NCBI GenBank assembly: GCA_015069385.1
Contig: SVIS01000002.1
Coordinates: 33,480 to 97,479 of the forward strand
DNA: 64,000 nt
DNA from: Clostridiales bacterium
GTDB taxonomy: Bacteria; Bacillota; Clostridia; Christensenellales; UBA1242
Reading direction: 5' to 3'
The notes under the pieces were generated by a model, which saw only the letters and a list, made by a program, of their open reading frames with translations, searched no databases and had not been told where the DNA came from. Below, piece after piece: positions 7,164 through 47,110 of this stretch. The translations under genes were made by a program, and so were the position numbers. Every line of letters begins with the position of its first letter. Position 1 is the stretch's first letter.

Positions 7164-7180
7164 TAGGACTGTTTTTTTAT

Positions 7181-7550
7181 AGTTAGTCTATAAGCCGAGT
7201 TCTGTATTAAATGGTCATCTTTCTAGTTATATTGTCTCCAATATAATCATTTGATAAATTGCTTTACCAAGTAGCGATATTTTTGCACCACGAGAAAGGA
7301 CACTCTTATATGTGGTGACTTAATCTTGCCTTAAATGGGGTTTGCATTGACCAAAGTTGTTACCAACTTTGCGGTGAGCTTTTACCTCACCTTTTCACCT
7401 TTTCCAAACCATGAAGATTTGGTAGTTATTTTCTGTTGCACTTTCCTTAGAGTCGCCTCCACCGGGATTTCTCCGGCATTACTTCCTTTAAAGGCTCGGA
7501 CTTTCCTCTCCGCTATCATTACGAGTAGCGCAGCGACCATCTGGCTAACT
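7181..7550 (-). ncRNA. rnpB: RNase P RNA (bacterial, Bacillota type)
   Basis: The reverse strand contains GAGGAAAGTCCG (rc of 7497-7508), AGGAAAGTGCAACAGAAA and, near the 3' end, ACAGAACTCGGCTTA (rc of 7191-7205). The 5' AGTTAG and 3' CTAACT ends can form P1. The track ORF 7335..7565 lies antisense inside it. Confidence 0.9.
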
Positions 7551-7621
7551 ACTTTTATATTTTAACATTGTATAATTGCTTTGTCAAGATTGTTAAAGTT
7601 GAATCATATTATTAAATTATA

Positions 7622-12243: not shown

Positions 12244-14223
12244 TTATTTTTTTAACCACAAATCATAACCCTCTTTATCACTTGCTGTTTGTTTAGTGTA
12301 GTCGCTTGCAAGATATATTGAATCAGTAGTATTTAAGCCCGTTTTGATGTAAATTGTAGTTGCATAATATATTAAACGACCAAAAGAGTCATTAGAAGTT
12401 AAGCCGTCAGCAATTGTTGCACTATCAATAATAACCTCATTTAATAAACCGGCATATTCAAAAGCACTTTGCCCAATATCTATTATATTATTTGAAATAT
12501 GAATACTTTTTAATGATTTGCAATTGAAAAAAGATCTATATTCAATTTTAATCACATTGTCTGGAATTTTAATTTCTTCTAATACCAAACAACCCTCAAA
12601 AACTCCTTGATCAATAATATCTAAGTTTGTTGACAATTGTACATTTTTTAATGACTTACAATTACCAAACGCACCGTACCCTATTTCCACAACACTGTTT
12701 GGGATTTCAATATTTTTCAAATCATCACACCAATTAAAAGCACCATTACCAATGCTACTTACACTATTTGGTATTTCAATTTTAGTTAATGAACAGCTTT
12801 GAAAAGAAAACTCACCAATACTAATCACATCATTTGGTATTATGGTATTTTTACATCCCGCAACTAATCTATTTGTCTTTGTTTCAATTATTGCATTGCA
12901 ATTATTTCGGCTATCATATACAGAATTTTTAGCATCTACACTTATGCTGGTCAAATATTCACAAGATGCTAAACCTACATTGCCAATACTTTTAACACTG
13001 CTTGGGATTTTTATCGCAGTTAATGAATTGCAAAGATAAAACGCTGAAGCCCCAATACTTTGCACACTGTTAGGGATTATAATGCTTGTTAAATCATAAC
13101 AACATATAAAAGCATCTTTGCCTATGTCCGTAATTTCAGGGTCTATCACAAGGTCTCCACTTTCATTTCTAAAAAATGAAATAATACCCCCTGAATAACC
13201 TGATACTATGGTAGTTCCATCAAAAGCACCTGGATACTCTTTCTTAATCACTGCCCACGACTTTACACATTCACCATTTTGATATAAGCCTGCAGGCGCA
13301 TTTTGGTCAACATTAAATCTTGCCTCCAAGGTTACATTTCCGCCAATAAAGTCATACTTCTCAATTTCCTTATCAGTGTCAGAAATAAACCAACCAATAA
13401 AGGATTCTTTAAATTCTTCTTTTATTGTTGGCAATTTCGTAATCCACTCAGTAGATTTTACTGTAATTCCCACAGCATAATCATTAAAGCAATCTTTTAA
13501 ACCACCATATTCAAAAAAAACGGTGTATGTTACACAGGTGGCATCTTTTCCATTTTCACCAACTGCCTTATATTCAGTTTTTACAGCGTTCTTATACCAA
13601 TATCCATCAGTTCCTATTGTCCATACATCTGCATCAGTTCCTATTGCTTTGTACTGTGTTTTTTCATCATTTAAATACCAATAGCCGTCAACACCGATTG
13701 TATATTCATAGCCATCTTTCCCATCTTCGCCGATTGCTTTGTTGTTAGTTTTAACACCATTTTTATACCAATAACCATCAGCACCAATAGTCCAAACATC
13801 TGCATTATTACCATTTGTTCCATTTCTAACTACAAATTCATAAGTAGAATTATCGTCAAGAGTTATAATATATGTGGTTTGTGTAGAATTTGTTTTTGTA
13901 GAGTCTGTGCTTGGAGTGATAGATTTTATGCCATTGCCTTTTTCTTCAACATCCCCAACGGCCTTGTGATTTTGCTTTACTCCGTTTTTATACCAATATC
14001 CATCGTTACCGATCGTCCAAACATCAGCGTCATCACCATCTTCGCCTTCCAAATCTGCAACAGCAATTAAATTACTCCAACTTTCACCGTTATAGTATTG
14101 AACATAACCATCTTCAACTTTAAATTGAATGTCTGGCGGTGTTTGTGTACAAGCGCTTAAGCAAAACATTGCAGGAATTATAAAGGAAATGCACAAAATA
14201 AATGTTAAAAATTTCTTTTTCAT
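12244..14223 (-). CDS. surface lipoprotein with DGYWYKNG tandem repeats and BspA-type leucine-rich repeats
   Basis: Start set at MKKKFLTFILCISFIIPAMFCLSAC (lipobox LSAC). Four repeats like DVWTIGxDGYWYKNGVKT. The C-terminal half carries IPNSVxSIGxxAF LRR units. Confidence 0.8.
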   Translation of the reverse strand: MKKKFLTFILCISFIIPAMFCLSACTQTPPDIQFKVEDGYVQYYNGESWSNLIAVADLEGEDGDDADVWTIGNDGYWYKNGVKQNHKAVGDVEEKGNGIKSITPSTDSTKTNSTQTTYIITLDDNSTYEFVVRNGTNGNNADVWTIGADGYWYKNGVKTNNKAIGEDGKDGYEYTIGVDGYWYLNDEKTQYKAIGTDADVWTIGTDGYWYKNAVKTEYKAVGENGKDATCVTYTVFFEYGGLKDCFNDYAVGITVKSTEWITKLPTIKEEFKESFIGWFISDTDKEIEKYDFIGGNVTLEARFNVDQNAPAGLYQNGECVKSWAVIKKEYPGAFDGTTIVSGYSGGIISFFRNESGDLVIDPEITDIGKDAFICCYDLTSIIIPNSVQSIGASAFYLCNSLTAIKIPSSVKSIGNVGLASCEYLTSISVDAKNSVYDSRNNCNAIIETKTNRLVAGCKNTIIPNDVISIGEFSFQSCSLTKIEIPNSVSSIGNGAFNWCDDLKNIEIPNSVVEIGYGAFGNCKSLKNVQLSTNLDIIDQGVFEGCLVLEEIKIPDNVIKIEYRSFFNCKSLKSIHISNNIIDIGQSAFEYAGLLNEVIIDSATIADGLTSNDSFGRLIYYATTIYIKTGLNTTDSIYLASDYTKQTASDKEGYDLWLKK

Positions 14224-14251
14224 ATCATACCCCCTATTACAAATTAGTATA

Positions 14252-14295
14252 GGTGAGATTTCTTCACCTGTCAACCATTTTGGTGAGAAATCTCA
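14252..14295. promoter_or_regulatory. candidate operator pair in the divergent LRR-lipoprotein / XRE promoter region
   Basis: GGTGAGATTTCTTCACC (hairpin-capable) and GGTGAGAAATCTCA, which contains the palindrome TGAGA-AA-TCTCA. The two are 30 nt apart, directly upstream of the XRE gene. Confidence 0.35.
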
Positions 14296-40627: not shown

Positions 40628-41533
40628 ATGTTAAAAAAAATTAAATTGAACAATAAGTCATATATTTTATTTTTTCAAAACTACGATTTTTGGAACAAAA
40701 TGATTGCCAAACATTTAAATGGTTGTTGCAATATTGATATAATAACATACAACTTTAATTTTAAAGATTATGGTGAAAATTCTTTTATAAGAAAGTTATG
40801 TAAACTTATCGATTGTGGTTGTTGCGTTCGTTTACTATATTCAAAAAGCGAAAACAATCAAGATTTAGTTAATAATTTTATAAACAAATTTGGAATTGTA
40901 TCAAAAATTAAAGATAACCATTCAAAAGTTTTTTTATCAGACAAAGTTGCATATATAGGTTCATCTAACTTTAGTTTTAATAGTAATTCTAATTTAGAAA
41001 GTGGTTTTTTTACTACTGACAAAAAAATAATCAAACAATTAAAAGACAATTTATTAAATGTTTATTATACTCATAAAAATTTTAAATGGATTACTATCCC
41101 TGATGAATTTCCTATAATTTTAGAACTTGATGACTTTAAAAAATATATTAATATTTTAACTGAAATTAAAAATAAATTTTTAGAAAACAAATGCATTACT
41201 TCTTTATTATACATTGACTTATTAACTAAAAAGCCTAAAAACATTTTTAAAATATTTGAATTTGATATTGATGAGTATTATCAAACAATTAAAACCACCT
41301 TACATCAACTTGAAAATAAAAGCCGAACTAAAATAGATAAGAATAATTATGTTTTTTTAGATGCATTAAACAATGCAATACTTTATACTCAGCAGTATTT
41401 ACAAACACTTGAACAATATATTATTAAAAATGGAATTGTTGAATTATATACTCAATGTGATTTATTAAAAAAAGAAGAAAAAGAAAAGTTTTATAATTTA
41501 TGTAGTGGAAATTATGAATGTAAAAAAACATAA
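40628..41533 (+). CDS. phospholipase D-superfamily (single HKD) protein, Nuc-like putative nuclease
   Basis: 301 aa. One HKD motif, NHSKVFLSDKVAYIGSSNF, at about residue 97. The C-terminal 150 aa are helical with no motif. Confidence 0.7.
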   Translation: MLKKIKLNNKSYILFFQNYDFWNKMIAKHLNGCCNIDIITYNFNFKDYGENSFIRKLCKLIDCGCCVRLLYSKSENNQDLVNNFINKFGIVSKIKDNHSKVFLSDKVAYIGSSNFSFNSNSNLESGFFTTDKKIIKQLKDNLLNVYYTHKNFKWITIPDEFPIILELDDFKKYINILTEIKNKFLENKCITSLLYIDLLTKKPKNIFKIFEFDIDEYYQTIKTTLHQLENKSRTKIDKNNYVFLDALNNAILYTQQYLQTLEQYIIKNGIVELYTQCDLLKKEEKEKFYNLCSGNYECKKT

Positions 41534-41586: not shown

Positions 41587-41829
41587 TTAACAATATTGTT
41601 TTTTTAATTTATCTATTTTTTTACTTATCTCATTCACATCTTGTAAAAGCAACTTAAATTTCACCTCACTTGCTTTCATTTCGTTTTCAATTTCAAGCCT
41701 TTGTTCATCATTTGCCTTTGCATAGCGTTTTAAAATGTCAAGTTTTTCTGCCTCCAATTGTTCTAGATCTTTTAATTTATTATCAAGGGCATTATTTGCT
41801 TTTTTTAATGTTTTCATAATATTATCCAT
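41587..41829 (-). CDS. small coiled-coil protein, last gene of the DGR operon
   Basis: 80 aa with heptad-rich sequence. A strong AGGAG RBS overlaps the stop of the target gene, with an 8-nt gap. Confidence 0.6.
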   Translation of the reverse strand: MDNIMKTLKKANNALDNKLKDLEQLEAEKLDILKRYAKANDEQRLEIENEMKASEVKFKLLLQDVNEISKKIDKLKKQYC

Positions 41830-41837
41830 ATATGCTC

Positions 41838-44672
41838 CTACCTTGTAATTTGACTTACTGCCTGTTGTATTTGCTCAAGAGTTTGCCTACTTTCTTCAAT
41901 ACTTTTTCTAATTGCTACGCTATTTGTTTTTGTTACCTCAGCATAAGTTTTAATTATATATTGGGCATTCCTTGCATCAGAATAACCAGCATAATTTCTA
42001 TGTCTTGCTTTTGGATTACTTTCTCTTTCAAAACGTTGAGATAGTTCACGTTTTAAATCGTTATAACCCTCGCCTGTTGTTACGCGTTCCACTTTAATTC
42101 CATCTTTATTCATAGCAGTCATGATTGCTACCGCAGACTCCTCTACCGCATCTACGAGTGCTTTTGCAGAAATTCTACGACCTTGCTTATCAGCAGAACG
42201 CAATTCATTTAATACTTTTGTTGGTATTTCAATATTGTCGTAACAAACTGTTTTTGTTTGTGGATCATACCAAATATATGCTTGCCCCAATATTCTTACT
42301 TCACCGGTAGGAGCGCCCTGTTCATTTAACACACTTTCTTCAAAGACTAAAAAGCCCGCATTAGGATTTGTATAACCATCATCTACACATTCTTCACCTG
42401 CCCCACCAAGCACTTGGCAACAATTTGTTATATCACCTAAAACAAAGCCAAGAGGGTCATCTTTTTCAAGAACTCTAAATTTTACACAACTTTTTTCATC
42501 TGATTTATCGGCACGAATAATATATGAATCTTTTAGTTTTTTTGCTTTTTCGTATATCTCTTGAATTTCATCAAACTGGTCTTGGTCGTAACCATATTTA
42601 CCAACAATTTCTGCTAATATTTCATTACCTTCTTCAATATCATCATATTCAATAATGCTGCAATGCTCAGCAACAAATCGTGGAGAAAGTAATGCACGTT
42701 CTTCATTACCATTAACAACTCTGTTTGGATAGTTTTTTAAAATTCTGTCAAAAGCATTATGAGCCGAACATAAATAATCTTGACTATCCATTAAGTCGCC
42801 ATCTTTATCACGAAGTCTAAAATTCATAAAGTCAGGGTTTTCGTGGTAATATTTCATAAAAAATTTGGCAAAGTTAGGATTATATTCATCTTTTAAAGTC
42901 ATTTTAGAAAATCTTGAATGAATTTCCGCACCCAATTCAGAAGGCGATGTGTTTTGATTTTTTGTTTTTGCAATATAATTTAAAACATAATTATATGCTC
43001 TTTCACACTCACCTTGATTTTCAGAAAAACCACCTATAGCATAAAATATTTTCATTAAGTCTATAAGAGAATTATTTTTTTCTGTACCTTCTAGGGTATC
43101 AAATTTTAGTGTTTTTACAAGTCTACCCCACCTTTGATTGTTATTATTTATAAAATATTTTTTCATTTGACTAGCAGGAAAAACTAGCATAGTATACTCA
43201 GGTGGAATAAACTTAATATTTCCATTTTGTTTCCATGTTTTTAGCTGAACATAATTTTGCCTAAAATTTGTATTAAATACTTTTTTTAACTGTTCTATAC
43301 TAAAATCTAATCTATATGAACCATTTTCTAATTTTTGATCAATTTGGTGAGAAATAGTTACATGCTTTTTATCTTTAGATAAATAAATATACATATAACT
43401 ATTAATATTTGTATAATGTTTATCTAAAAAAGCATTTTCAATATTACTTATTTGTTTTGTACCTGTTTCAAAACAAATTTGTGTGTTATTCAAGCCAGCG
43501 AAAGCATAATCTCCAAGTTTTGTTACATGTGATGGAATATATATTTTATTTATTCCAATACACCCCTCAAATGCATGTGCGCATATTTCATGTTCATTAT
43601 CTGGTATTATATATTCTACAGTAGGTTCCCTGGTTAAATTTAATGCTTGCTGCAAAAAGCCACTATTGGTAAAATCCCATTGATATTCGGCTTTATATTG
43701 AGAATTACCATCTATTTGTTTAGAATTTGCACTATTTAAAAATGCCCTAACTAGAGAGTTTTGCCACATTGAACAATTATCATGGTCATATGTTGGATAA
43801 AAAGGTAAGCCGGATAAAATTGCCTCTTCGGTTTCTAATTCTAAATATTTATCAGCACCAAAACGCTTGCCTTTTGAATTAATACTTTTAGGTAGTTGTT
43901 CCCAGTTTTTTATTTCAAATGTAACGGGCTCAACTTTAACCCATTCAACACTACCGGTTTTTGGAACTATTGTTCCATCTTCATAAATATGATTTTTTGA
44001 ATCATTCCAAACAATTACCCTTACATATTTTTTGCCTTTATATATAAATTCAGGATTTTGTTTAGATAAAAAATCTTCACCATATTCACGTTGACCGTTT
44101 GTTGTATAAAGCCTGCCAGTTGCCTGCAACTCAGGCTTTAGCATTCCTCCTTGGTATTGGTTTTCAAGTTCTAAAAAAAGATTTTGAGGTACTTTTGTTT
44201 TAGGGTATTCACCTATATTTATAAAATGTTTTGTTTTTTTATCTATTTTTTTGTGTAAAATATCAATTTTACCGCCACCCGCACTACGTGCGGAGATATA
44301 AGATTCCAGATTGAGGTACAAAGCGGGGCACAGCGACAGACTCCTAGCTCTAACATTGTCCCAACCCAAAGAGCCATCGTAGTCTATAAACCTAACAATG
44401 TTGCTAGAATAGGCAGAGCGAAGCCAAGGAGCACCAGCCCTTTTATCCCGGGCCGTATCACACAAACTGCTTTGCCATGAATAATTCATTAAAGCAAAAT
44501 CGGTTAATGTTTTGATTCGCTCATTTTCGGGAATATTCTTGACTTCTTCATAAGAATTTAATTTTATGTAGTCTGAGGTAAATAAACTATTATTTCCTTT
44601 TTCGCCAGTTGTAGTTGTATTATCTAATTTTTGCAATATTACCATTTTTGAAAAATCTATATTTTTGCTCAT
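41838..44672 (-). CDS. DGR variable (target) protein: N-terminal C-type-lectin-like variable domain, BspA-type LRR segment, large uncharacterised C-terminal region
   Basis: 944-aa uninterrupted ORF with a GGAGT RBS. It contains VR (codons 78-118) encoding ...GAPWLRSAYSSNIVRFIDYDGSLGWDNVRARSLSLCPALYLNL. No signal peptide or TM helix. Confidence 0.85.
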   Translation of the reverse strand: MSKNIDFSKMVILQKLDNTTTTGEKGNNSLFTSDYIKLNSYEEVKNIPENERIKTLTDFALMNYSWQSSLCDTARDKRAGAPWLRSAYSSNIVRFIDYDGSLGWDNVRARSLSLCPALYLNLESYISARSAGGGKIDILHKKIDKKTKHFINIGEYPKTKVPQNLFLELENQYQGGMLKPELQATGRLYTTNGQREYGEDFLSKQNPEFIYKGKKYVRVIVWNDSKNHIYEDGTIVPKTGSVEWVKVEPVTFEIKNWEQLPKSINSKGKRFGADKYLELETEEAILSGLPFYPTYDHDNCSMWQNSLVRAFLNSANSKQIDGNSQYKAEYQWDFTNSGFLQQALNLTREPTVEYIIPDNEHEICAHAFEGCIGINKIYIPSHVTKLGDYAFAGLNNTQICFETGTKQISNIENAFLDKHYTNINSYMYIYLSKDKKHVTISHQIDQKLENGSYRLDFSIEQLKKVFNTNFRQNYVQLKTWKQNGNIKFIPPEYTMLVFPASQMKKYFINNNNQRWGRLVKTLKFDTLEGTEKNNSLIDLMKIFYAIGGFSENQGECERAYNYVLNYIAKTKNQNTSPSELGAEIHSRFSKMTLKDEYNPNFAKFFMKYYHENPDFMNFRLRDKDGDLMDSQDYLCSAHNAFDRILKNYPNRVVNGNEERALLSPRFVAEHCSIIEYDDIEEGNEILAEIVGKYGYDQDQFDEIQEIYEKAKKLKDSYIIRADKSDEKSCVKFRVLEKDDPLGFVLGDITNCCQVLGGAGEECVDDGYTNPNAGFLVFEESVLNEQGAPTGEVRILGQAYIWYDPQTKTVCYDNIEIPTKVLNELRSADKQGRRISAKALVDAVEESAVAIMTAMNKDGIKVERVTTGEGYNDLKRELSQRFERESNPKARHRNYAGYSDARNAQYIIKTYAEVTKTNSVAIRKSIEESRQTLEQIQQAVSQITR
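44279..44293 (-). other. GC-rich hairpin 25 nt downstream of VR
   Basis: The coding strand reads CCGCAC-GTA-GTGCGG (6-bp GC-rich stem), inside otherwise AT-rich coding sequence. Confidence 0.5.
44319..44440 (-). repeat. DGR variable repeat (VR)
   Basis: 122 bp matching 45976-46097, with 11 mismatches that all fall at template-adenine positions. In frame within the 944-aa ORF. Confidence 0.93.
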
Positions 44673-44733
44673 AGGTATACTCCGTTTTTTTTATTGTAAC
44701 AAATTTCATTATGATTGTAAAGACTATAATTAA

Positions 44734-45756
44734 CTAAATTTTATACTTATTTACAAAGATTCTATAAATTTTATTGGAATGTGAATAATTTAAATGTGCT
44801 TTATAAGAATTTAATCTTATTTTTATATATGCATTATTAATAAGACCGATCTTTTTATATTTAGACATTAATTTAATTCTTTTTTTTAATTTAATTTTTG
44901 CTTGTAAGCGTAGGAGTCTTATTACTTTACCATTGTCTAGTAAAATATTTCGAAACCCTAAAAAATCTATACCATTACTCAATTTAGAAATTTGCGTTTT
45001 ATGGTTTAATTCAAGCAATAATTTTTCTTTACATACCTTTTCAATTTCTTGTTTACAATATTTTAAATACTCTTTACTTTCATGTACTAATATCATATCG
45101 TCCATGTATCGCACATAATACCTTATTTTTAGTTTTTCTTTAATTAATCTATCAATCATATTTAAATAGTATAAAGCAAACCATTGACTAGTTTGATTAC
45201 CTATTGGTAAACCAACTCCTTGTTTTTTATTTCTACTATCTATTATCATATTCAAAAAACTAAGTTCTTCTGCATCAAAATTTGCTTTTAATAAAAGTTC
45301 TTTCAGCACATTATGATTTATACTTTGAAAATATTTTTTAATATCACATTTTAAAAAATAACCTTGATTGTTTTTATGAATATTATAAAATGAATGTAAA
45401 AACTGATTTAGCCTTTTTAATCCAAATAACGTACCTTTGTTTTTTCTGCAAGCTACGTTATCATAAATTAATTTTTTATCTAATTTTGGAGCAATGATAT
45501 TTTTAGTTAATGCCATTAGCACAACTCTATCTTTATATGAAAGAGCCTCTATGTTACGTTTTTTAGGTTCAAATATGTAAAATTGCTTATACTCACCTAA
45601 TTTATATGTAAAATTTAATAAACTTTTTGAAAGTTCTGTAAGGTTTTGCGAAAGATTAACTTCAAAAATTATTGTATCACGTTTATGTTGTTTATTGCAG
45701 CGACATAAATTATGTGCGTGTAGTAATCTTTCAAAAGTAAAAGCCTCGTGTAACAT
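44734..45756 (-). CDS. DGR-type reverse transcriptase
   Basis: 340 aa. RT motifs include IGNQTSQ (DGR-specific [ILV]GxxxSQ) and YVRYMDDMIL (YxDD). AGGAGG RBS. No maturase or endonuclease domains. Confidence 0.93.
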   Translation of the reverse strand: MLHEAFTFERLLHAHNLCRCNKQHKRDTIIFEVNLSQNLTELSKSLLNFTYKLGEYKQFYIFEPKKRNIEALSYKDRVVLMALTKNIIAPKLDKKLIYDNVACRKNKGTLFGLKRLNQFLHSFYNIHKNNQGYFLKCDIKKYFQSINHNVLKELLLKANFDAEELSFLNMIIDSRNKKQGVGLPIGNQTSQWFALYYLNMIDRLIKEKLKIRYYVRYMDDMILVHESKEYLKYCKQEIEKVCKEKLLLELNHKTQISKLSNGIDFLGFRNILLDNGKVIRLLRLQAKIKLKKRIKLMSKYKKIGLINNAYIKIRLNSYKAHLNYSHSNKIYRIFVNKYKI

Positions 45757-45975
45757 ATTCCTCCTTATTATTAATTTGTGCCACCCCTCTATAATATTAG
45801 ATAAACTTCCAAAGCACGTTTGCGTTAGTTGTTAAGGTGGCAATCTTCTTCTGCTTCTTATTTTAAAAAGAAGTTCAGAAAAGAATAAAGTCCCTTTGCC
45901 TTATACACACGATTATTCTACTTAGAATAAACACTTCTGGCTGTTTTATAATGATTAAATTTCATTCTTCAAAGG

Positions 45976-46097
45976 CAAATCGGGGCACAGCGACAGATTC
46001 CTATCTTTAACATTGTTCCAATTTAAAGAGCCATCGTAGTCTATTTACCTAACATTGTTGCTAGAATAGGCAGAGCGAAGCCAAGGAGCACCAGCCC
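45976..46097 (-). repeat. DGR template repeat (TR)
   Basis: Intergenic copy located 45 nt after the avd stop. It has an in-frame TAA and several AAT/AAC codons. I count 29 adenines on the transcribed strand. Confidence 0.93.
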
Positions 46098-46142
46098 AAA
46101 AGCGACTTTATCTTAATTAAAGCGTTGCCGCTGTAATCCATA

Positions 46143-46712
46143 TTAATGTGTATGCCTTAAGGCATCACTTTTTCTCCATGCAATTAATAAATTAATACAA
46201 TCTGATAGTTGCAAAGAAATTTGTTCATATTGTTTTTTTAATATACATTCATTTTCTAATGCTAAAAAAGACATATAACTTAATAATTTTAACTTTAAAA
46301 ATGCAGCATGTTGACAACTTTTTCGCCTTTCTTTGTTTTTAATAGAATCCATTTTTAGTGAATTTGCTTCAATAAGTTGTTCTATACAATCTAGACAGTA
46401 ATTTTGTAGTCTATTTACAAACACTGCTCTAAATTTTTTAGGAGATTTTTCTGTGACTGTAATAACATAAGCCGCTAATTTTTTTGTTTTTGTAATAACG
46501 ATAAGTTCACTTGTATCATTTCTTATTTGCATTTCTTTATTAATTTTTTTTGAATCTTCAGTAAAATCATCTATTTTTTTATAAGTTTTTTTATTAGCTT
46601 GTGCTACAGCCTTTGCTATTTCTATTTTAGAATTAATGCATTCTTTTGTTTCTTCATTTCGTGGAATTATATTTGGTAATCCCACATTTTTGTTTCTTCC
46701 AAAACTATTCAT
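46143..46712 (-). CDS. avd: accessory variability determinant (Avd)-like four-helix-bundle protein
   Basis: Sits immediately upstream of TR. The C-terminal ~125 aa are helical and basic and end in ...LLIAWRKSD, like Avd proteins. The ORF is 189 aa; an internal ATG at 46532 would give 129 aa. Confidence 0.7.
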   Translation of the reverse strand: MNSFGRNKNVGLPNIIPRNEETKECINSKIEIAKAVAQANKKTYKKIDDFTEDSKKINKEMQIRNDTSELIVITKTKKLAAYVITVTEKSPKKFRAVFVNRLQNYCLDCIEQLIEANSLKMDSIKNKERRKSCQHAAFLKLKLLSYMSFLALENECILKKQYEQISLQLSDCINLLIAWRKSDALRHTH

Positions 46713-46861: not shown

Positions 46862-46938
46862 TGGTGCGCGTGAAGGGATTCGAACCCCTGACCTTCGCCT
46901 TAGAAGGGCGCTGCTCTATCCAACTGAGCTACACACGC
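46862..46938 (-). tRNA. tRNA-Arg (anticodon UCU), CCA encoded
   Basis: The reverse complement GCGTGTGTAGCTCAGTTGGATAGAGC...CTTCTAA...GGTTCGAATCCCTTCACGCGCACCA folds as a cloverleaf. Anticodon loop is CTTCTAA. Confidence 0.88.
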
Positions 46939-46948
46939 AAATAAATTT

Positions 46949-47022
46949 TGGAGCGGGTGATGGGAATCGGACCCACGCAACCAGCTTGGAAGGCTGGGGC
47001 TCTACCATTGAGCTACACCCGC
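46949..47022 (-). tRNA. tRNA-Gly (anticodon UCC), CCA encoded
   Basis: Reverse complement GCGGGTGTAGCTCAATGGTAGAGC-CCAGC-CTTCCAA-GCTGG...CACCCGCTCCA. Anticodon loop is CTTCCAA. Confidence 0.88.
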
Positions 47023-47110
47023 AAATTTAAAACTTTGTTATTATAGCAAACACTGATTATATTGTCAACAAAAATTTCAATCGGTGTTAAAGTTGTTTCT
47101 AAAATTACTC

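Follow-up and report, generated by a model that had tools for sequence, protein, structure and literature searches.

The stretch of DNA analyzed here (hereafter "the window") comprises 64,000 nt of contig SVIS01000002.1 from the Clostridiales genome assembly GCA_015069385.1, and all coordinates refer to positions within it. Its minus strand encodes a diversity-generating retroelement (DGR), whose components are arranged in the order avd, template repeat (TR), a 219-nt structured spacer, reverse transcriptase (RT), and target gene. The avd gene (46143–46712, 189 aa) matches phrog_3206 "Avd protein of DGR" (E 1.8e-18) over aa 60–186, and this core is preceded by an N-terminal extension of ~60 aa. 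The TR (45976–46097) is 122 nt long, includes 29 adenines, and has TAA as codon 95 and AAA as codon 108 in the frame of the variable repeat (VR). The spacer (45757–45975), analyzed through an alignment of 10 loci and RNAalifold, separates the TR from an RT of 340 aa (44734–45756), which carries the motifs IGNQTSQ and YMDD, in line with the [I/L]GxxxSQ and YxDD signatures of DGR-lineage RTs, and matches both RVT_1 (E 2.7e-16) and phrog_1423 (E 2.7e-95). Homologs of this RT at 32–67% identity all adjoin adenine-biased TR/VR pairs. The target, or variable, protein (41838–44672, 944 aa; Pfam LRR_5, E 2.3e-8) is encoded by an open reading frame (ORF) beginning 61 nt past the RT end, and its VR (44319–44440) covers codons 79–118, with variable codons 88–111, i.e., the VR is located at the N-terminus of a target encoded downstream of the RT. 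A first-pass annotation of the window had pointed to the two RT motifs, to an Avd-like gene upstream, and to a TR in the avd–RT intergenic space, all of which are recovered here.

Offset by 1657 nt, the two repeats can be aligned along all 122 bp without a gap and differ at 11 positions (TR coordinates 45980, 45998, 46004, 46007, 46017, 46022–24, 46045, 46046, and 46055). At each of these sites, the TR carries a T on the plus strand, which is an A on the coding minus strand, while none of the 93 non-adenine positions is mismatched. If 11 mismatches were placed at random, the probability that all would fall on the 29 adenines is 2.5e-8. The first-pass annotation had listed these same 11 positions in two 122-bp copies, counted 29 template adenines by hand with no non-adenine mismatch, and translated both repeats, and the realignment reproduces it on each point: in the VR frame, the TR reads AGAPWLRSAYSSNNVR, followed by an in-frame TAA stop and then IDYDGSLNWNNVKDRNLSLCPDL, and the VR translation contains SSNIVRFIDYDGSLGWDNVRARSLSLCPAL. 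No third VR-like copy was found in the 64-kb window. The count of 11 adenine mismatches is thus correct, whereas their attribution to mutagenesis probably holds for 10. The mismatch at 45980/44323 (GAT, Asp, in the TR vs GCT, Ala, in the VR) recurs in nearly all of ~40 related loci, including null alleles, i.e., those truncated by a stop codon. Because it is seen across the clade even in null alleles that are not under protein selection, we read it as fixed, and it most likely represents an IMH/IMH-star difference (IMH, initiation of mutagenic homing) just beyond the 3′ boundary of information transfer rather than a product of mutagenesis. This leaves 10 mutagenic differences among 28 template adenines.

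Natural variation at this VR was evaluated on contigs from other metagenomes, retrieved by exact-protein look-ups, including one of the RT; a pattern scan of metagenome contigs with the TR carrying N at each adenine site returned no match, though JGI contigs with the sequence exist. The source samples are JGI 3300031555, 3300018493, 3300024270, 3300018475, and 3300024272, together with the ENA assemblies ERZ27248446 and ERZ27248370. The VR allele of the window is also present in contigs L001, L002, L003, and L005, and the TR sequence is identical in L001–L003. A fifth contig (L004, ENA ERZ27248446), which is MEGAHIT k141-labelled and spans the whole 122-nt VR along with both flanks, differs from the window at 12 of 2558 nt, all of them in the VR and all at TR-adenine sites; for 12 differences randomly distributed over 2558 nt, the probability that all would be located within the 122-bp VR is ~1e-16. 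Two more alleles were obtained from L086 (an ENA MEGAHIT contig) and L087 (JGI 3300024272), which differ from the window at VR adenine sites only, with the exception of one indel in L087. This last contig, aligned to 44381–46465, displays a 15-nt indel upstream of the VR, its RT is called at 345 aa vs 340 aa, and all five of its base mismatches to the window appear to be in the VR. L086 and L087 are independent assemblies that both end at 44381, just before a TR-adenine site. Since assemblers break at heterogeneous positions, this shared end suggests that the VR was heterogeneous within those samples.

Overall, four alleles are available for this species, with no non-adenine change among them. 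The first-pass annotation had called the DGR intact and proposed that VR polymorphism should be confined to template adenines; all components are indeed present, and the VR is heterogeneous at template adenines only, as seen on public assemblies rather than read pile-ups. It had not remarked on three features by which this locus stands out: an N-terminal VR in a target downstream of the RT, the null alleles that the template TAA gives rise to in nature, and the probably fixed mismatch at the boundary. At the protein level, the 90%-identity cluster of the target includes the window protein of 944 aa, another of 532 aa that carries the window VR allele, and three distinct 94-aa products (P0099–P0101) from three samples. 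For a sister species, one cluster (P0001) includes 13 full-length variants from different samples with 31 variable positions, 20 of which are in the VR, and each of these VRs is unique and rich in Tyr and Phe, showing the wider clade to be active as well.

Relatives of the RT, at up to 67% identity, were detected in species-representative genomes of uncultured Christensenella-like, Eubacteriales, and other Clostridia, as well as "Bacilli"/Tenericutes, all metagenome-assembled genomes (MAGs) from animal guts. Relatives with 47–67% RT identity and enough sequence all present a TR, an RT, and then a VR that follows the RT end by 250–460 nt, or by 705 nt in the outlier L050, and that falls near codons 60–120 of a 630–975-aa ORF. 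This N-terminal-VR architecture is common to ~40 related gut-MAG loci; the Avd N-terminal extension is kept in ~35 of the related loci and is missing from the canonical relatives, found below ~45% RT identity, in which the VR is C-terminal. Two of these canonical C-terminal-VR loci, from a Treponema MAG (L061) and a Christensenellaceae MAG (L066), have a TR ending in ...GVVPDL and a VR ending in ...GVVPAL, with the ORF stop 12–15 nt later. This is the same Asp/Ala boundary as in the N-terminal clade, and hints that the N-terminal architecture may have arisen by fusion of bodies onto a C-terminal DUF6273-type target.

The TR of the window includes an in-frame stop, and the fate of this codon differs between alleles. 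In the window allele, the TAA at codon 95 has been changed to TTT (Phe), while the other three of the four alleles retain it and encode truncated products of 94 aa. With an in-frame TAA and a stop-prone AAA in the TR, a large share of retrohoming events would truncate the target at codon 95 or 108, and this null share is predicted at 46–70% of full-length retrohoming at this locus for 25–50% substitution per adenine. Across the clade, 17 of 38 loci have at least one in-frame stop in the TR vs none of 17 canonical relatives (internal stops; Fisher p = 4.7e-4), and the VR itself includes a stop in 11 of 38 vs 0 of 17 (Fisher p = 0.012; L042 and L055, misframed by indels, were excluded from these statistics). 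Among the interrupted VRs, the template stop was kept in L017–19, L029, L035, and L043, one stop was swapped for another in L024, L025, and L030, and a stop was gained from AAA in L010 and L040; two further VRs, in L020 and L040, have 1-nt deletions. By our own count, 9 of 19 template stops were retained across species representatives. This is near the neutral expectation of 45–65%, so that nulls seem to face little purifying selection. Cells may tolerate nulls well, or the OFF state may be of use; alternatively, stops may simply be the price of the residues that become reachable at an important position.

Two other accounts of the null alleles were considered. Assembly chimeras between VR and TR were rejected because adenine-site substitutions not shared by the TR occur only a few bases away from the stop that was kept (in L004, L086, L087, L017–L019, and L024/25), and the null allele of L004 continues through the VR into both flanks, which also counts against a chimera. 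A reassignment of the stop codon is unsupported, as table-11 ORFs are intact across the window and the functional allele has Phe at the position of the stop.

On its 3′ side, the VR/TR homology ends in a 16-nt GC-rich block common to both repeats (CTGTCGCTGTGCCCCG; 44324–44339, minus strand), after which the flanks diverge alike in ~40 loci. The base next to this block differs between the repeats (CTTTG in the VR vs ATTTG in the TR), and this difference is fixed across the clade. By comparison with the (G/C)14 element of the IMH in Bordetella phage BPP-1, we infer that the block may act as an IMH-like boundary of information transfer. Within conserved "SARSA" codons, 25 nt downstream of the VR, the DNA can form a hairpin (CCGCAC-GTA-GTGCGG; 44279–44293, minus strand), likely a cruciform/hairpin element for target recognition. 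A hairpin was found 25–28 nt past the VR in all 13 Clostridia-type loci scanned, and it recurs in register in 23 of 23 aligned loci from both subgroups, with a C-GNA-G triloop core in all but two (L007, L017, and L021 were registered by hand on this core before counting). Its stem covaries between loci (e.g., CGCGC/GCGCG, GGCGC/GCGCC, CCTC..GAGG, and TTGC..GCAA), L029 displays a perfect 8-bp stem, and six of eight pairs are changed on both sides. The observed score was reached in none of 500 shuffles, and 74.5% of the hairpin cells are paired vs 26–52% in slid controls. Since the VR is N-terminal, these cis elements are embedded in coding sequence, and a coding constraint on recognition elements had been predicted for non-C-terminal VRs (Wu et al. 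2018, PMC5758913; Roux et al. 2021).

The spacer RNA is similarly structured. GATTTGCCTT, at the 3′ end of the TR, is paired to AAGGCAAAGG ~80 nt downstream, and four further covarying helices follow. Across the 10 loci, RNAalifold yielded 54 pairs with 93% of cells paired and 27 pairs changed on both sides. The observed values were reached in 0 of 500 shuffles for percent paired, for pairs and cells changed on both sides, and for covariation score, and in 70 of 500 for further pair types; slid controls were 41–58% paired. By analogy with the DGR RNA of BPP-1, this RNA could provide a scaffold and priming region for an RT–Avd complex.

The target protein was modeled with AlphaFold2 (AF2; mean predicted local distance difference test, pLDDT, 90) and includes, in order, a DUF6273/C-lectin-like head (aa ~1–135), a beta-rich domain, a BspA-type leucine-rich repeat (LRR) region (~350–430), a helical region, and a GNAT-like C-terminus (~730–910). 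The head (aa 1–135) matches Pfam DUF6273 weakly (E 0.006), and Foldseek returned a single credible PDB neighbor for it (E 0.026, prob 0.99), namely the N-terminal DUF6273 domain of an IgA peptidase from T. ramosa, described in PMC12402451; DUF6273 has been called C-lectin-like in published work (PMC10743442). With up to 18 variable codons, at positions 88–111, the VR could encode ~10^14–10^15 sequences. A PDB profile search of the target recognized the LRR alone. The C-terminal domain has a GNAT topology, with weak Foldseek matches to GCN5/PCAF (best E 7e-4, TM to target ~0.5–0.59), and a BFVD search returned both GNAT and DUF6273 matches for the target. At the sequence level, Pfam and PDB profile searches gave no GNAT match for this domain, Pfam found nothing on the C-terminal 494 aa, and the segment after predicted strand 4 (DNIEIPTKVLNELR), inspected by eye, is without the Q/R-x-x-G-x-G/A glycine motif. 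The GNAT-like domain also includes a strongly conserved Cys-rich motif at aa 746–817 (~42222–42437; GDITNCCQ...C..DGY.NP.AGF.VFE...C.DNIEIP), which could be a metal site or a catalytic center; this region matches hypothetical proteins of Microcystis phages at 36–38% identity.

No signal peptide, transmembrane segment, or LPXTG/sortase motif was recognized in the target, for which the hydropathy maximum is 1.09, and the protein is probably cytoplasmic. Its C-terminal 494 aa are common without the DUF6273 head in 650–860-aa "leucine-rich repeat proteins" from Christensenellales and other Clostridia MAGs. Conversely, head and beta domain are kept in 42 related DGR loci, where the body is usually an AAA_5/MoxR-type ATPase. 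The target thus apparently consists of a portable, DGR-varied head that can be fused to different bodies, themselves cytoplasmic in appearance.

Outside of the cassette itself, an 80-aa coiled-coil ORF located directly downstream of the target (41587–41829, minus strand) is possibly co-transcribed with it; this ORF is kept in the three nearest relatives only (L006, L008, and L055) and has no family match in Pfam, PADLOC, or PHROGs. PADLOC and PHROGs also included no family for the target or for ORF121. A consensus scan identified a candidate target-gene promoter between the RT stop and the target start (TTTACA-17-TG-TACAAT; 44693–44721, minus strand), a weak candidate because promoter-like hits in this region do not exceed the shuffled expectation. 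Immediately upstream of avd are tRNA-Arg(TCT) and tRNA-Gly(TCC) (46862–47022 and 47040–47068, both on the minus strand), whose promoter displays a perfect sigma-70 consensus (TTGACA-17-TATAAT) and, in addition, the TG of an extended −10. Read-through from this strong tRNA promoter might transcribe the DGR operon, and the tRNAs could mark an integration site.

The wider neighborhood includes rpsU, acyl- and glycosyltransferases, an Orn/Arg decarboxylase-like gene, NAD synthase, PFOR, TopA, UvrC, and a bacterial class A RNase P RNA (7175–7552, minus strand, 237.7 bits), the latter confirming that the window is chromosomal. At gathering thresholds, Rfam identified no known RNA family inside the DGR, its matches being this RNase P RNA and tRNAs elsewhere. 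A 301-aa PLD-family protein (40628–41533, plus strand; PLDc_2, E 4e-10) is convergent to the DGR target and shows weak PADLOC matches to DrmC (E 6e-5) and DpdK, but related DGRs do not have it beside them. Finally, a 676-aa ORF (12244–14274, minus strand) displays similarity to LRR adhesins (NCBIfam HupY/LrrG, E 6.5e-20, far under cutoff), and LRR proteins, among which the body of the DGR target belongs to a large family, seem abundant in the host lineage.

Taken together, these observations point to an intact and naturally active DGR in the chromosome of an uncultured gut Clostridia bacterium, one that inactivates as well as diversifies its target, a reading to which we assign a probability of about 93%. 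In the mechanism that we propose, TR and spacer would be transcribed together and the spacer would fold into its conserved multi-helix structure, an RT–Avd complex would copy the TR into cDNA with misincorporation opposite template adenines, and this cDNA would replace the VR, with a 3′ boundary set by the CTGTCGCTGTGCCCCG block and by the hairpin 25 nt downstream. Priming, adenine misincorporation, and cDNA integration are carried over from the BPP-1 literature. The VR encodes part of the DUF6273 (C-type-lectin-like) head at the N-terminus of the 944-aa protein. The element would diversify its target and, through the TAA and AAA of the TR, often inactivate it. Several points weigh against this reading or parts of it. 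The Avd matches fall under the curated cutoffs of both NCBIfam (NF033474 DivGenRetAVD, E 7.9e-11) and Pfam (bAvd, E 1.3e-5), and in Foldseek comparisons the head did not match the classical DGR lectin structures Mtd and TvpA. Heterogeneity within samples is deduced from contig breakpoints only, two of the three alternative alleles span just the first 60 nt of the VR, and the three null alleles all have TAAG at codons 95–96, so that they may share descent instead of representing independent events. The cytoplasmic location of the target, in turn, is read solely from the absence of recognizable export signals.

Could the locus instead be a decayed, inactive relic, in which adenine-specific differences testify to past activity only? 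Four contigs from JGI samples share the VR allele of the window, which speaks for a relic. Yet the RT and Avd ORFs are intact, conservation extends to the TR, spacer, IMH-like block, and hairpin, and three other alleles, without any non-adenine change, are found between flanks that are identical apart from the 15-nt L087 indel. Alternative alleles on near-identical flanks argue for recent turnover rather than decay, and we consider a relic very improbable. In a separate alternative, the target might be a surface adhesin, or a receptor-binding protein of a phage or virion, similar to tentaclins or BspA-LRR proteins and directed at extracellular ligands through an export or assembly route that was not recognized. 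DUF6273 heads do occur on the receptor-binding tentaclins of phages (PMC10743442), BspA-type LRRs are typical of surface proteins, and the best BFVD match of the target is an uncharacterized phage protein (E 7e-12). This alternative is nevertheless unlikely given the lack of recognized signal peptide, transmembrane segment, or sortase motif, the fusion of most orthologous heads to AAA+ ATPases, a class of machines that work in the cytoplasm, and the absence of detected Ig/Fn3 domains in the target. The surrounding genes (tRNAs, rpsU, lipid and glycosyl transferases, decarboxylase) also include no phage gene, and a phage origin was rejected: the target has no PHROG match and no close homolog in the phage collection, and a search of IMG/VR for RT relatives identified none that was close, the best being 50% identical.

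If activity is accepted, the role of the template stops can still be read in two ways. They may be an incidental cost of diversification, as a TAA, TGA, or TAG in the TR offers adenine mutagenesis its only route to Trp, and to an enrichment in Tyr, Phe, Leu, Cys, and Ser, at a binding position of key importance, with nulls being transient and selected out whenever the protein is needed. Consistent with this idea, the outcomes open to the TAA codon are Y, S, C, W, L, F, and a stop, the TR stop position alternates with TGG (Trp) in the Bacilli-type subgroup where VRs have W, L, or C, the sister-species VRs are strongly enriched in Tyr and Phe, and the functional allele of the window carries Phe at this very codon. 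Against it, about half of the TR stops (the 9 of 19 noted above) are retained, at a near-neutral level that suggests weak selection against nulls, three of the four alleles in this species are null, and canonical relatives reach high diversity without any TR stop. On balance, an incidental cost is a serious possibility that falls somewhat short of even odds. Alternatively, in this gut Clostridia/Bacilli-like clade, the DGR may act both as a diversifier and as a stochastic on/off switch of a cytoplasmic sensor-effector, in which a lectin-like head is carried by an AAA+ or LRR/GNAT-like body. If so, the template stops and the N-terminal location of the VR would together give each retrohoming event about equal odds of producing a new specificity or a null, and populations could hedge their bets by having an intracellular receptor, costly and possibly immune-like, either carried or silenced. 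We put forward such a switch as a tentative and rather doubtful proposal.

Mechanistically, the locus is a DGR of the avd–TR–RT core type, in agreement with each defining test that was run, and an accessory Avd is part of the commonest architecture (B) in the survey of Wu et al. (PMC5758913). Two typical, non-defining traits are not seen here, namely a C-terminal VR and a TR made of stop-proof AAY codons, in place of which TAA and AAA are found. The DGR of phage BPP-1 (mtd-avd-TR-brt) similarly combines Avd and RT with adenine-only TR/VR differences, a GC-rich IMH-like VR 3′ end, a GC-rich hairpin downstream, and a structured TR–RT spacer RNA. Unlike in BPP-1, the target gene is found downstream of the RT, the VR is located at codons 79–118 of 944 rather than at the C-terminus, and the cis elements are found inside coding sequence, with a hairpin that has a 3-nt GNA loop and is located 25 nt from the VR. 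The in-frame stop in the TR, the ~60-aa extension of Avd, a chromosomal, non-phage context, and a head of DUF6273 rather than Mtd type also set this locus apart from BPP-1.

Among targets described so far, those closest to this one are the tentaclins (Baykov et al. 2023, PMC10743442), along with Hoc-like DGR targets of Faecalibacterium prophages. Tentaclins likewise bear the VR in an N-terminal C-lectin/DUF6273 head, and in at least one phage locus (Toutatisvirus) the target gene is likewise placed downstream of the RT (PMC10743442). However, tentaclins are phage proteins in which the head is followed by 1–4 Ig/Fn3 domains, including a conserved C-terminal Ig, whereas the window target has no Ig (Pfam LRR_5 only), its body instead consisting of the beta domain, BspA LRR, helical region, and GNAT-like domain, or of an AAA+ ATPase in relatives, and the genomic context is chromosomal with housekeeping neighbors.

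C-terminal placement of the VR is treated as near-universal by Roux et al. 2021, and Wu et al. 2018 (PMC5758913) reported N-terminal VRs in 3 of 372 DGRs, noting that the IMH is then constrained by coding sequence. The locus studied here shares this constraint with those cases and shows how it is accommodated, while the large clade, embedded hairpin, extended Avd, cytoplasmic bodies, and template stops are features not described in that survey. Another parallel is offered by the intracellular conflict, or "antigen sensor", proteins proposed by Kaur et al. 2020 (PMC7159879), which lack export signals and in which a DGR-varied lectin-like domain is fused or linked to NTPase modules. Those VR domains are of the FGE-sulfatase type and are usually located on the vWA component of MoxR–vWA ternary systems in multicellular bacteria, e.g., cyanobacteria (PMC7159879); the head described here is, by contrast, N-terminal, DUF6273-type, and directly fused, in small-genome gut Firmicutes. 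MoxR/AAA_5-type ATPases are carried by relatives of the window target, the window protein itself being without an NTPase. Targets of Dore et al. 2024 reportedly have a C-terminal lectin domain placed after a STAND NTPase. For DGR template stops or VR nonsense alleles, term searches limited to an open-access library, and extended to the papers of Wu et al., Roux et al., and Baykov et al., found no mention, and the lone mention of a stop codon concerned RT inactivation.

Overall, the element is of a known kind, but its form, an N-terminal-VR DGR with template stops, is rare and has been little described. We know of no natural system of targeted protein hypermutation in prokaryotes other than DGRs, and the rules for these elements mostly reflect lectin-fold targets that are C-terminal and extracellular and whose templates are stop-proof. 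Three such rules, on VR position, target type, and template stops, are broken by this locus and its ~40 relatives, which are demonstrably active all the same. They provide a natural case in which recognition elements are written into codons, with IMH and hairpin constraints coexisting with protein coding, and their cassette, being compact and having defined cis elements, could guide the engineering of DGRs to mutagenize N-terminal domains. The template stops and common natural nulls raise the question of whether a DGR may serve as a phase-variation device, and the targets, modular and cytoplasmic in appearance, carry the notion of intracellular sensors diversified by DGRs over to common Firmicutes of the gut.

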